Shown: one piece after another, positions 9,001 through 18,000 of the stretch
How positions within the stretch are numbered: position 1 is the first letter of the stretch
Layout: the number at the start of each line of letters is the position of its first letter
NCBI RefSeq assembly: GCF_053078305.1
Contig: NZ_CP166879.1
Length of the DNA stretch: 64,000 bases
Direction: 5' to 3' (one strand)
Made by a program: the position numbers

Positions 9001-12000
9001 GGCTGGCCTGCGTGCCGATATTCTTTCTCCTGTCAAAGAAACCGGCACATTGCTGGGCGTGGTAAGTTCACAAGCGGCGGAACTCTGCGGTCTGAAGGTG
9101 GGCACTCCGGTGGTCGTTGGAGGAGGCGACGTGCAGCTTGGTTGCCTGGGGTTAGGCGTTGTGCGTCCGGCACAAACCGCGGTTCTTGGCGGCACATTCT
9201 GGCAGCAAGTTGTAAATTTAGCCGCGCCGGTGACAGACCCAGAAATGAACGTGCGCGTTAATCCTCATGTTATTCCTGGCATGGTACAAGCTGAATCTAT
9301 AAGCTTTTTTACCGGACTCACCATGCGCTGGTTCCGCGATGCTTTCTGTGCCGAAGAAAAACTGATTGCCGAACGTTTAGGCATCGACACCTATACGCTG
9401 CTGGAAGAGATGGCCAGTCGGGTGCCGCCTGGGTCGTGGGGCGTAATGCCGATCTTCTCCGACAGAATGCGCTTTAAAACCTGGTATCACGCTGCGCCTT
9501 CCTTTATTAATTTGTCCATTGACCCGGATAAATGTAACAAAGCGACATTGTTCCGTGCGCTGGAAGAAAATGCGGCGATTGTATCAGCGTGTAACTTGCA
9601 GCAAATTGCTGATTTTTCGAATATTCATCCTTCATCGTTAGTCTTTGCAGGCGGAGGTTCAAAAGGGAAATTATGGAGTCAAATTCTCGCTGATGTCTCG
9701 GGATTACCCGTCAATATTCCGGTGGTCAAAGAAGCCACTGCATTAGGATGTGCCATTGCAGCTGGCGTCGGTGCCGGAATTTTTTCATCAATGGCAGAAA
9801 CCGGAGAACGCCTGGTTCGCTGGGAACGGACGCACACACCAGACCCGGAAAAGCATGAACTTTATCAGGATTCACGCGATAAGTGGCAGGCAGTTTATCA
9901 GGATCAGCTGGGGCTGGTTGATCATGGACTGACGACGTCGTTATGGAAAGCGCCTGGGTTATAGTTTCATTGACAGCCACATCATGATGACCGTGGCTGT
10001 TAGTTTTTGAGTATAGTTATTCTTATTTCCCTTCTTTTAGAACTGGCTTGTTAAATGCCAGCTTGCAGATTCATCGTTCCATCACCAGTAATATATTCAA
10101 GGGAAAATTGCTATTTTTCTTAAAGCATTAAGCATAACCCTTATTTTATAACGAATATTCCTAAAGGCATTAATGGATGAAGAAGGGGTTTAATAAACCT
10201 CGTTTTTTAGCAATTAGTGCTATTCTTTGTTAAATATGATGATGATAATTTTCTTATTGAAAGAAACAGTTTTCTTATTAAGCAGCAATAACTCATGATT
10301 CATTTTTAAATAAAATAAGAACTATGCAATTTTTAATCTATCAATTCGAAAGCATTAGCAAATTAGCCAAATTGACACCTTCCCACCTCCAACTAACACT
10401 CAATACAGACCTCTGACAATTTAATAAGTTTCATTTTTAATGTCTGGCGACTCATCTCTTTCGTGGCTGTATTGTTTGTATATGGAGCGTTTATATGAAT
10501 AGAATCTATCGCGTGATATGGAATTGCACTCTACAGGTATTTCAGGCCTGCTCTGAATTAACTCGCAGGGTAGGTAAAACATCAACGGTTAATTTGCGTA
10601 AATCCTCTGGACTGACAACGAAATTCAGTAGATTGACGCTGGGTGTTTTGCTGGCACTAAGCGGTTCAGTGTCTGGTGCGAGTCTGGAAGTTGATAATGG
10701 TCAGATTACCAATATTGATACTGATGTTGCTTATGATGCCTACCTGGTTGGCTGGTATGGCACTGGAGTGCTTAATATTTTGGCTGGCGGTAATGCCGCC
10801 TTAACCACTATTACTACCAGCGTCATTGGCGGTAATGAGGATTCGGAGGGTACCGTTAATGTTTTGGGTGGCACCTGGCGATTGTATGATAGTGGAAATA
10901 ATGCAAGGCCTTTAAATGTGGGTCAATCCGGAACGGGGACGCTGAATATTAAACAGAAGGGTCACGTCGATGGAGGCTATTTAAGATTAGGTACACAAGC
11001 TGCAGGCGTCGGGACGGTTAATGTTGAGGGAGAGGACTCGGTTTTGACGACCGAATTATTCGAAATAGGGAGTTACGGTACGGGCTCATTAAATATTACG
11101 GATAAGGGTTACGTCACGAGTTCAATAGTCGCCATTTTAGGATATCAAGCGAACAGTAATGGTAAGGTTGTCGTTGAAAAGGGTGGCGAGTGGCTAATAA
11201 AAAATAATGATTCCTCAATTGAATTTCAAATTGGTAATCAAGGAACTGGGGAGGCGACTATTCGCGAGGGTGGGCTGATTACGGCTGAAAATACGATTAT
11301 CGGTGGCAATGCCACCGGTATCGGAACCCTGAATGTGGAGGATCAAGACTCTGTCATCACGGTACGCAGACTCTATAATGGATATTTCGGTAATGGCACA
11401 GTCAATATTTCCAATAATGGACTGATTAATAACAAAGAATATTCATTGGTGGGCGTTCAGGACGGTTCCCACGGTGTCGTCAACGTGACCGATAAAGGGC
11501 ATTGGAATTTCCTCGGAACGGGCGAAGCTTTCCGCTATATCTATATCGGTGATGCTGGCGACGGTGAACTTAATGTCTCGAGTGAAGGCAAAGTAGATTC
11601 GGGAATTATCACTGCGGGGATGAAAGAAACAGGCACAGGCAACATTACTGTTAAGGATAAGAACTCCGTTATCACTAATCTCGGAACTAATCTTGGTTAT
11701 GACGGCCACGGCGAAATGAATATCAGTAATCAGGGGCTTGTTGTCAGCAACGGAGGAAGTTCACTCGGTTATGGAGAAACCGGCGTCGGGAATGTCAGCA
11801 TCACCACGGGGGGAATGTGGGAGGTCAATAAGAATGTCTATACCACCATTGGTGTTGCGGGCGTCGGAAACCTCAATATTAGCGATGGCGGTAAGTTCGT
11901 ATCGCAAAATATTACTTTTTTGGGTGATAAAGCAAGCGGTATCGGCACATTGAACCTGATGGATGCGACATCGTCGTTCGATACTGTGGGTATCAATGTC

Positions 12001-15000: not shown

Positions 15001-18000
15001 TTACACGACCGTCTGGGTGAGCCGCAGTATACAGATTCACTGCATTCTCAGGGATCGGCAAGCAGTATGTGGATGCGTCATGTCGGGGGACACGAACGTT
15101 TCAGGACCGGTGACGGCCAGCTAAATACTCAGGCTAACCGCTATGTATTGCAGCTAGGCGGAGATTTGGCGCAGTGGAGTAGCAACGCGCAGGATCGCTG
15201 GCATCTTGGCGTCATGGCAGGCTACGCCAATCAGCACAGTAATACTCAGAGTAATCGTGTGGGTTATAAATCGGATGGGCGCATCAGTGGTTACAGCGCT
15301 GGGCTGTACGCGACCTGGTATCAGAACGATTCGAATAAGACCGGCGCTTATGTTGACAGCTGGGCGCTGTATAACTGGTTTGATAACAGCGTCAGTTCCG
15401 ATAACCGTTCTGCTGACGACTATGATTCTCGCGGTGTGACGGCCTCTGTTGAGGGTGGGTATACCTTTGAAGCGGGAACATTTAGCGGCAGCGAAGGGAC
15501 GCTGAATACCTGGTACGTCCAGCCACAGGCGCAAATCACCTGGATGGGTGTGAAAGATTCTGACCATACCCGGAAAGACGGAACACGGATTGAAACGGAA
15601 GGTGACGGAAACGTGCAAACGCGACTTGGGGTGAAAACCTACCTGAATAGCCATCACCAGCGTGACGATGGTAAACAGCGTGAGTTCCAGCCTTACATTG
15701 AAGCGAACTGGATCAACAATAGCAAAGTCTACGCCGTGAAGATGAATGGTCAAACCGTAAGCCGTGATGGTGCGCGTAATCTCGGTGAAGTACGTACCGG
15801 GGTTGAGGCGAAAGTAAATAACAACCTTAGCCTGTGGGGGAATGTCGGTGTGCAACTAGGTGATAAAGGCTATAGCGATACTCAGGGCATGCTGGGAGTG
15901 AAATATAGCTGGTAAACCGTATAAGCCGCATGTCGAGATGGCATGCGGCTTAATATTGCCAACTTCAAAAGGCTTTTAAAGCCTCCCTTTTATCCGCGAT
16001 CGCGGATATCTCAGCGTTTATCCCGTACAGCGGATAAGATGTGTTTCCAGATTGACTTTATCCTCACTAAAGGATAAAACTGATAATATCCCCTTAAGCG
16101 GATAAATTTGCTGTGGACGTATGACATGATGAGCTTTCAGAAGATCTATAGCCCAACGCAATTAGCGAATGCAATGAAACTGGTTCGCCAGCAAAATGGC
16201 TGGACGCAGAGCGAGCTGGCGAAAAAAATCGGCATTAAGCAGGCGACGATTTCCAATTTCGAAAACAACCCTGACAATACCACGCTCACGACATTTTTTA
16301 AGATTTTACAGTCGCTTGAACTCTCAATGACGCTATGCGACACGAAAAATGCCTCGCCAGAATCAACAGAACAGCAAGATCTGGAGTGGTAATGCCCAAA
16401 CTAGTCACTTGGATGAACAACCAGCGGGTAGGCGAGTTAACGAAGTTAGCCAACGGCGCGCACACCTTTAAGTATGCACCGGAGTGGTTAGCCAGCCGTT
16501 ATGCCAGACCGTTGTCACTTTCGCTGCCATTGCAGAGGGGGAATATCACCTCTGATGCCGTATTTAACTTCTTCGATAACTTGTTACCCGATAGCCCGAT
16601 TGTACGTGACCGGATCGTTAAACGTTATCATGCCAAATCCAGACAACCGTTTGATTTATTGTCAGAAATAGGGCGAGACAGCGTTGGTGCCGTGACGTTA
16701 ATACCCGAAGACGAAACCGTAACGCGTCCGATAATGGCATGGGAAAAGCTTACTGAAGCCAGACTTGAAGAAGTATTAACGGCTTATAAAGCAGATATCC
16801 CGCTAGGCATGATTAGAGAAGAAAATGACTTTCGCATCTCGGTTGCTGGCGCACAGGAGAAGACAGCGCTGCTCAGAATAGGCAATGACTGGTGCATTCC
16901 GAAAGGAATAACGCCGACGACGCACATCATTAAATTACCGATTGGGGAAATCAGGCAGCCCAATGCGACGCTCGATCTCAGCCAAAGCGTTGATAATGAG
17001 TATTACTGTCTGCTGCTGGCGAAAGAACTTGGGTTGAATGTTCCGGACGCAGAAATCATTAAAGCGGGAAATGTGCGCGCGTTAGCGGTCGAACGTTTTG
17101 ACAGGCGTTGGAATACTGAGCGAACGGTTTTACTTCGCTTGCCACAGGAGGATATGTGTCAGACATTCGGTTTACCTTCATCGGTGAAATATGAATCAGA
17201 TGGAGGCCCAGGCATCGCGCGGATCATGGCTTTTTTGATGGGGTCCAGCGAGGCGCTGAAAGATCGCTATGATTTTATGAAATTCCAGGTCTTTCAGTGG
17301 TTGATTGGCGCAACGGATGGCCATGCAAAAAACTTCTCCGTATTTATTCAGGCTGGCGGCAGTTATCGACTCACGCCATTTTATGACATCATTTCAGCAT
17401 TTCCGGTCCTTGGCGGTACGGGGATACACATCAGCGATCTCAAACTGGCAATGGGACTTAACGCATCCAAAGGCAAAAAAACGGCAATCGATAAAATTTA
17501 TCCGCGACATTTTTTGGCGACAGCAAAGGTGCTGAGATTCCCGGAAGTGCAGATGCATGAAATCCTGAGTGACTTTGCCAGAATGATTCCGGCAGCACTG
17601 GATAACGTGAAGACTTCATTACCGACAGATTTTCCAGAGAACGTGGTGACGGCAGTGGAAACCAATGTGTTGAGGTTGCACGGTCGGTTAAGCCGGGAAT
17701 ACGGTATTAAGTAAGAGTAAGATATGGGGTTTGGTCGTTGTTAATGAGCAGGACAATCATGACCGCCAACGACTAGATTCTTCCTTGGTTTATGTTGGTG
17801 CGCATAATGTATATTATGTTAAATCGTATCTGAGTGATACGAAGTGATTTTCCGGTAGTCGTTATTCGTTCAGGATTCCAGAACTTAAGCCTCTCCTCTT
17901 TCATAATTGGCCTGTGCATGCCGGATATAGGCTGGCTGGTATGCAGATTTGCCGTTTGCCGCATCTTCCCAGCGTTGAAGACTCAAGCTGGCAAACCGCG

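Follow-up and report, generated by a model that had tools for sequence, protein, structure and literature searches.

The described systems closest to the gene considered here include ECSE_1600 of the commensal Escherichia coli SE11. ECSE_1600 encodes an 1806-aa autotransporter. According to Table 4 of the 2008 SE11 genome paper (PMC2608844), SE11 and HS have an intact copy, MG1655, E24377A, and O157 Sakai have a disrupted one, and the gene is missing from the B2 strains CFT073, UTI89, and 536. The MG1655 counterpart is yneO (b4696), a 5422-bp annotated pseudogene lying in the syntenic position between hipB and lsrK. Other described relatives include AIDA-I, an adhesin of enteropathogenic and diffusely adhering E. 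coli, the surface beta-helix adhesins Ag43 and TibA, Salmonella MisL and ShdA, and E. coli YfaL/EhaC. We analyzed a 64,000-nucleotide stretch of DNA (RefSeq assembly GCF_053078305.1, contig NZ_CP166879.1), hereafter the window, in which positions 10495–15915 very probably hold an intact copy of the type Va autotransporter gene of the ECSE_1600 family (yneO, formerly ydeK and ydeU) that E. coli carries on its chromosome. The remaining doubt applies jointly to this assignment and to the adhesin and silencing model described below. The gene in its intact form and the name of the family have been described before, as has the pseudogene in K-12; the intact allele is common and not new. The finding therefore carries little weight as a discovery and has modest practical value.

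A single plus-strand open reading frame (ORF) with an ATG start spans these positions, and no internal stop codons occur in its 1806-codon translation. The NCBIfam model NF011422 ("ECSE_1600 family autotransporter") defines membership by a whole-protein score above 2335 bits together with full-length coverage. The window protein has both, scoring 4135.5 bits with profile positions 1–1806 of 1806 aligned to residues 1–1806. Because the model aligns over the full length of the protein and the ORF is complete, a hidden frameshift, stop, or truncation in 10495–15915 is ruled out. The exact protein is on record as WP_044191964.1, "ECSE_1600 family autotransporter [Escherichia coli]." The gene order lsrK, autotransporter, hipBA is the same in all annotated genomes fetched, as it is in SE11 and K-12, which places the window copy in the family by position as well; genes annotated "ECSE_1600 family autotransporter" occupy this position in other genomes. 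An earlier sequence-only reading had described an uninterrupted 1806-codon autotransporter preceded by AT-rich DNA; the ORF listing, the stop-free translation, and the NF011422 alignment agree with it, and its coordinates, ORF length, and account of the preceding DNA were exact.

Comparison with K-12 locates the difference between the intact and the broken gene. K-12 yneO (formerly ydeK b1510 and ydeU b1509) occupies the same locus and has 97.7% nucleotide identity to the window copy. Pairwise alignment of the lsrK-hipB interval gave 152 mismatches and only one indel within the ORF, an extra G in K-12 at window position 14449, codon 1319. The window reads TCT-GGGGGG-ACA at this site and K-12 reads CCT-GGGGGGGG-CA, such that a G8 run in K-12 stands against GGGGGGA in the window; the run is G7 in phylogroup-A-type intact alleles. 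The shifted frame meets a stop at codon 1326, giving the 1325-aa YdeK, and a 492-codon ORF in the next frame corresponds to YdeU. The K-12 product thus ends at residue 1325, ahead of the autochaperone and barrel, whereas the window copy is intact. With the extra G removed, the K-12 sequence is open over 1806 codons and differs from the window at 33 non-synonymous and 82 synonymous codons, which rules out several lesions in K-12. The earlier statement that a frameshift splits the MG1655 gene into ydeU and ydeK was therefore correct, and the lesion is one +1 frameshift. Neither of the outcomes that would have contradicted the reading, an identical MG1655 sequence or a hidden lesion, applies.

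The predicted protein has the layout proposed from the DNA alone, a signal peptide followed by a beta-helix passenger and a beta-barrel; domain matches in Pfam and NCBIfam, sequence matches to PDB entries, and an AlphaFold model of high confidence all support it (Table 1). Each part of a type Va protein was found: an N-terminal Sec signal peptide of the ESPR type, a beta-helical passenger with a C-terminal autochaperone, and a C-terminal 12-stranded barrel with a linker helix, the strand count being taken from homology. Signal peptide cleavage probably occurs near aa 62 (SGSVSG/ASLEV). The only cysteines are C11 and C19, both within the ESPR extension and not at a lipobox after the hydrophobic core, so the database names "lipoprotein YdeK" and "autotransporter barrel domain-containing lipoprotein" are probably artefacts. 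Pfam also identified PATR repeats. In the N-terminal part of the passenger (aa 63–650), a G-x-G-x-[LV]-N-[IV] motif occurs in 17 clear copies spaced 24–26 aa apart, the TIGR04393 repeat matches nine stretches, and AlphaFold predicts strand triplets with pLDDT mostly above 90. The core that follows (aa ~700–1262) is predicted to be a beta-helix with long hairpins, in which no distinct known domain was recognized. A search for relatives of the passenger core returned 3390 at E ≤ 1e-3 among 50%-identity cluster representatives, with the best stretches mostly covering query residues 640–1200; these are mostly autotransporters of 1,000–7,700 aa with 33–47% identity. The AC_1 and Pertactin Pfam matches together span aa ~1332–1452, and aa 1178–1457 have sequence matches to two solved structures of the IcsA autochaperone, 3ml3 and 5ke1. 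The autotransporter beta-domain PF03797 was found at aa 1525–1784 (E 2e-42), TIGR01414 matched with E 3e-122, and the AIDA-I translocator structure 4mee matched aa 1345–1806 (E 5.5e-87).

The AlphaFold model of the passenger is all beta with a mean pLDDT of 89.7, and the nearest solved folds identified by Foldseek are Ag43, TibA, EspP, IcsA, Hap, and pertactin. The long-strand region, considered as a distinct functional domain within the passenger, matched only beta-helix stalks when modeled alone (pLDDT 84), and this candidate was rejected. The N-terminal Peptidase_S6 domain looked for as evidence of a SPATE was absent, with no protease domain found in Pfam and NCBIfam scans.

Compared with its relatives, the window protein has the same length as ECSE_1600 of SE11, the namesake of NF011422, and shows allelic differences only. 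It shares the type Va layout with AIDA-I and is homologous to it in the C-terminal part of the passenger, in the autochaperone, and in the barrel. However, the AIDA-I model NF033176 scores 338.7 bits over aa 1069–1805 only (cutoff 1200), outside that family, and the N-terminal passenger lacks the 19-aa repeats of the AIDA-I type and has the 24–26-aa GxGxLNI periodicity instead. No heptosyltransferase gene of the Aah/TibC type is adjacent to the gene, its neighbors being lsrK and hipB with no such intergenic ORF. The fold similarity to Ag43 and TibA is strong (Foldseek probability 1.0; E 1e-6 for 7koh and 4kh3 and 1.5e-4 for 4q1q), but identity is 12%–14%, the window passenger is about twice as long, and no sequence similarity to the Ag43 or TibA passengers was detectable by phmmer. 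MisL, ShdA, and YfaL/EhaC have a homologous translocation unit (aa ~1300–1806) and unrelated passengers; the MisL, ShdA, and YfaL equivalog models score 469, 219, and 204 bits, C-terminally only, below cutoffs of 1297, 2249, and 1459. None of the nearest relatives outside the family reaches a curated NCBIfam cutoff, so there is no named, characterized orthologue from which function could be transferred.

Substitution patterns point to constraint on the intact protein. When the window allele is compared with nine other intact alleles from E. coli, Nei-Gojobori estimates of dN/dS range from 0.12 to 0.13. A Pseudocitrobacter orthologue of exactly 1806 aa has 85% nucleotide identity, dS 0.56, dN 0.075, and dN/dS 0.135. 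The ratio varies along the protein. It is highest, at 0.25, in the N-terminal repeats, the fastest-evolving part, and falls to 0.07 in the core, 0.054 in the barrel, and 0.045 in the autochaperone. On these rates, the intact protein is under purifying selection with a faster-evolving exposed tip. Because dN/dS is ~0.12 among intact alleles, the protein is probably functional; the suggestion of a potentially functional product gains support from this value and from the comparison with the 1806-aa Pseudocitrobacter orthologues. The Pseudocitrobacter contig (L020, 5001–12028) carries the orthologue followed by hipB and an N-terminal fragment of hipA, with bluF/bluR-ymgAB in place of lsrK upstream and integrase genes just downstream, and its HipB is ~92% identical to that of E. 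coli. The low dS of only 0.56, the similarity of HipB, and the recurrence of hipB/hipA downstream hint that an autotransporter-hipBA module moved horizontally between Escherichia and Pseudocitrobacter.

The intergenic region upstream of the gene (9965–10494) is 530 bp long and has a GC content of 31.7%, whereas the ORF has 49.9% and the window as a whole 48.2%, which confirms the strong AT-richness reported earlier. Relative to K-12, this spacer has equal length, 18 single-nucleotide polymorphisms, and no indel. Genomic SELEX in K-12 lists an RpoD "constitutive promoter" for yneO, CTGACA-17-TTTAAT, and flags an H-NS site in the yneO-lsrK spacer in the same table (PMC3946193); an RpoS-holoenzyme peak has also been mapped to the K-12 spacer (PMC5493296). 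Because the window has an AT-rich spacer with a conserved promoter that is H-NS-flagged in K-12, silencing by H-NS under laboratory conditions is plausible by analogy with the in vitro K-12 binding data. Two kinds of switch were rejected. No GATC sites occur between 9923 and 11341, and with none in the spacer a Dam/OxyR phase-variation switch of the agn43 type, a feature of Ag43 that the window gene does not share, is not supported. An invertible promoter like fimS was also discounted, as the spacer has only short inverted repeats at chance level and no recombinase gene lies nearby.

We favor a model built on the established pathway of type Va secretion, in which slow Sec export would be directed by the ESPR-type signal peptide. 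The C-terminal ~280 residues would be inserted by BAM as a beta-barrel with the linker helix in its pore, and the ~1270-residue passenger would be threaded outward C-terminus first, folding on the autochaperone into a long right-handed beta-helix. By analogy with this pathway, we infer that the passenger stays on the cell surface, where it would most likely mediate adhesion, cell-cell aggregation, or biofilm formation, a role suggested by the architecture and the fold similarity to Ag43 and TibA. Transcription would start from the sigma-70/sigma-S promoter ~54 nt upstream, within the 530-bp AT-rich spacer. Since H-NS targets this spacer in K-12, expression of the gene is probably low under ordinary laboratory conditions.

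Intact copies are a minority among complete genomes. A megablast search with 9965–16335 against 5,426 complete E. coli genomes identified 3,886 genomes with at least 80% coverage, and 40 evenly spaced records out of 5342 matching records were taken as a status sample. All 24 full-coverage loci in the sample were fetched except one with an obvious insertion sequence (IS) element. The gene was intact in 10 of the 40 records, full length but a pseudogene in 14, partial, IS-interrupted, or deleted in eight, and absent in eight in which only the hipB flank matched; these last genomes apparently lack lsrK too. The intact fraction is therefore about one quarter of genomes (binomial 95% interval ~13%–41%), and disrupted copies account for 22 of the 40, although some homopolymer indels in long-read assemblies (e.g., three in FORC_082) may be sequencing errors and the pseudogene fraction is perhaps somewhat overestimated. 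In the protein databases, two clusters of intact 1806-aa proteins have 18,868 and 5,726 member sequences (~24,600 together), and K-12 YdeK falls in a cluster of truncated forms with 8,672 members.

The lesions are diverse. Frameshifts include +G at codon 1319 (K-12 derivatives and 14EC017), +G or +GG at codon 1277 (XJW9B263, LR-24, and FORC_082), −1 at codon 1278 (14EC017), +G at codon 438 (2022N21-074-17), −G at codon 1552 (ET220), and +CT at codon 720 (L2_E1649). There is also an 8-bp duplication at codon 1328 (O157:H7 PA20), a 29-bp deletion at codon 398 (OkiPb01710), nonsense mutations at codons 17 and 1683 (361 and FHI_NMBU_11), and, in the megablast sample, IS insertions. With at least 12 different lesions in the 40-record sample, one inherited defect across E. 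coli is ruled out. The truncated proteins of 1302–1362 aa do not all break at the K-12 poly-G site; their breaks fall at codons ~1277, ~1293, ~1319, ~1329, and ~1346. The Pseudocitrobacter entries of 1318 aa are N-terminally truncated. Length variation through the passenger repeat register is likewise ruled out, as variants of 1440–1715 aa are one-off in-frame deletions; among database proteins, several large in-frame deletions take out the autochaperone and others part of the barrel. The gene has thus been repeatedly lost in E. coli through independent frameshifts (concentrated in G6–G8 runs), nonsense mutations, IS insertions, and deletions. The survey accounts for the frequent annotation of this gene as a pseudogene: the lesions are independent, and many fall at poly-G runs.

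The window allele has the fewest and shortest G-runs among the alleles examined. Other intact alleles carry G7–G8 runs at codons 258, 438, 1277, 1319, and 1345, and the window allele has two G6 runs only, which makes it mutationally more robust. It offers a clean, G-run-poor intact allele of a widespread E. coli autotransporter that could be cloned to ask what the conserved passenger binds. Among the 5,426 complete genomes, the best match to 9965–16335 is 98.7% (the baboon isolate PapRG-06-5) and one record reaches at least 99%, whereas the adjoining fimbrial region (17715–24400) has a best match of 99.4% and 324 records at 99% or above. The mismatch profile along the gene is patchy: the first 1 kb is nearly identical to PapRG, and bins 3 and 8 are nearly identical to O157. 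Together, these values suggest a rare and mosaic allele.

Several observations weigh against an expressed adhesin. The gene is lost or broken in roughly three of every four complete E. coli genomes and can therefore be dispensed with in many niches. In NCBIfam and PDB-sequence searches, the N-terminal part of the passenger resembled no characterized adhesin in sequence, and the H-NS binding data were obtained in vitro on K-12 DNA and not on that of the window strain. Literature searches for ydeK, ydeU, yneO, and ECSE_1600 yielded mentions in genome papers, SELEX tables, and mutant lists only, and no functional study of expression, secretion, or adhesion was found for any strain. It could be that the ORF is open simply for want of a lesion; selection on it would then be relaxed, and the gene would be a silent relic that no longer has a function. 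The many disrupted records, the eight records without the gene, and the one-off in-frame deletions that remove the autochaperone or part of the barrel fit this explanation, as does the broken usher of the neighboring F9-type operon in the window, a sign of ongoing decay of surface structures in this region. We nevertheless regard a relic as unlikely. Low dN/dS (~0.12 for intact alleles, ~0.05 within the autochaperone and the barrel) and a length of exactly 1806 aa in both Escherichia and Pseudocitrobacter, at a dS of 0.56, indicate that intact copies of the gene have long been under purifying selection. Conservation also extends to the promoter, the Shine-Dalgarno sequence, and the terminator.

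The recurrence of frameshifts at G-runs raises the question of whether this is a contingency locus, phase-variable by slipped-strand mispairing at poly-G, with K-12 yneO in an OFF phase and not dead. Frameshifts recur at codons 258/259, 438, 1277 (+G, +GG, and −1 in different strains or proteins), 1319 (K-12 and 14EC017), and 1346, and other intact alleles have G7–G8 runs at these sites. However, the two G6 runs of the window allele are so short that they would not slip efficiently in E. coli with functional mismatch repair. Every K-12 derivative sampled has the G8 run in a fixed state, and its product occurs on at least 1000 contigs. Many lesions are not in homopolymers (the 8-bp duplication, 29-bp deletion, +CT, nonsense, and IS lesions), and some of the long-read homopolymer indels may be errors. 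Phase variation is thus highly improbable here. The passenger might instead be no adhesin and serve as a released toxin or enzyme, in serum resistance, or as a phage or colicin decoy; its conserved core is common to thousands of giant autotransporters of unassigned function, and the nearest relatives fall short of every curated family cutoff. Such a role is improbable. We give a small chance to a further pair of ideas, namely that the G6–G8 runs recurring in most E. coli alleles at codons 258, 438, 1277, 1319, and 1345 are slippage switches, with K-12 reversibly OFF and the window allele, whose runs are interrupted, locked ON, or that the core (aa ~700–1262) is an unrecognized ligand-binding module.

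Table 1. Features of the autotransporter gene and its flanks in the window
Feature	Position	Strand	Evidence
AT-rich lsrK-autotransporter spacer, putative H-NS-bound regulatory region	9965–10494		composition; K-12 genomic SELEX
Terminator-like hairpin after lsrK (ACAGCCAC...GTGGCTGT, then TAGTTTTT), putative	9973–10008	+	read from sequence, repeat listing
Sigma-70 promoter-like site CTGACA-17-TTTAAT	10413–10441	+	identical to K-12 yneO promoter; 54 nt 5' of ATG
Shine-Dalgarno GGAG, 7 nt 5' of ATG	10484–10487	+	read from sequence
Complete ECSE_1600-family type Va autotransporter gene (1806 codons + stop)	10495–15915	+	ORF, translation, NF011422 match
ESPR extended signal peptide (aa 1–47) and hydrophobic core	10495–10680	+	Pfam PF13018, E 5.6e-14
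N-terminal passenger repeat region, aa 63–650, beta-helix rungs	10681–12444	+	motif spacing, TIGR04393, AlphaFold
G6 run, codon 438; +G frameshift site in 2022N21-074-17	11808–11813	+	allele comparison
Conserved passenger core, aa ~700–1262	12593–14280	+	relatives search, invariant columns
G6 run TCT GGG GGG ACA, codons 1318–1321; K-12 lesion site	14449–14454	+	alignment
Type 1 autochaperone/pertactin-like domain, aa 1332–1438	14488–14808	+	PF18883, E 2.2e-26; PF03212, E 1.3e-10
Pro-rich linker and predicted pore-spanning alpha-helix, aa 1439–1524	14809–15066	+	within 4mee match; helix by analogy
Outer-membrane beta-barrel translocator, aa 1525–1806, end ...GVKYSW	15067–15912	+	PF03797, TIGR01414, 4mee
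Terminator-like hairpin (AGGCTTTTAAAGCCT; hairpin 15970–15984) and T-rich tail, 55 nt past stop codon	15970–15994	+	consensus scan only

The gene is preceded by lsrK (8372–9964), which scores 998 bits against the AI-2 kinase equivalog model, and followed by hipB/hipA. It looks monocistronic, because a hairpin and T-run follow lsrK, the gene has its own GGAG, and a terminator-like hairpin follows its stop codon; the hairpin after lsrK was not picked up by a simple terminator scan. The spacer between the autotransporter gene and hipB (15916–16125) differs from K-12 by a 13-bp indel (GCATCAACGCCTT, missing in the window) and a 1-bp indel. In O157:H7 PA20, a different and degraded hipA-family region lies downstream of the frameshifted copy. 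Upstream, the lsr cluster for AI-2 uptake is complete at 478–9964, with six minus-strand ORFs (478–7091), lsrR (7340–8293), and lsrK, the one gene of the cluster to which a family model was applied.

Downstream of hipA, the window holds an F9-type (ydeQRST) fimbrial operon in the 17715–24400 region. A FimA-like major subunit (18640–19251) and a FimC-like chaperone (19603–20322), both lost in K-12, are kept. The usher is split into a 247-aa N-terminal piece (20364–21107, profile positions 6–240) and a 382-aa C-terminal piece (21216–22364, profile positions 496–877). The 6686-bp fimbrial query spans 7337 bp in its best E. coli matches. The difference implies that ~650 bp have been lost from within the usher gene in the window. 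Near the far end of the window, an Rfam SECIS_3 selenocysteine insertion element (63012–63070, minus strand; 84 bits) lies at the 5' end of a minus-strand ORF of 803 codons (60605–63016), an arrangement consistent with an fdnG-type formate dehydrogenase read through UGA, a normal feature.

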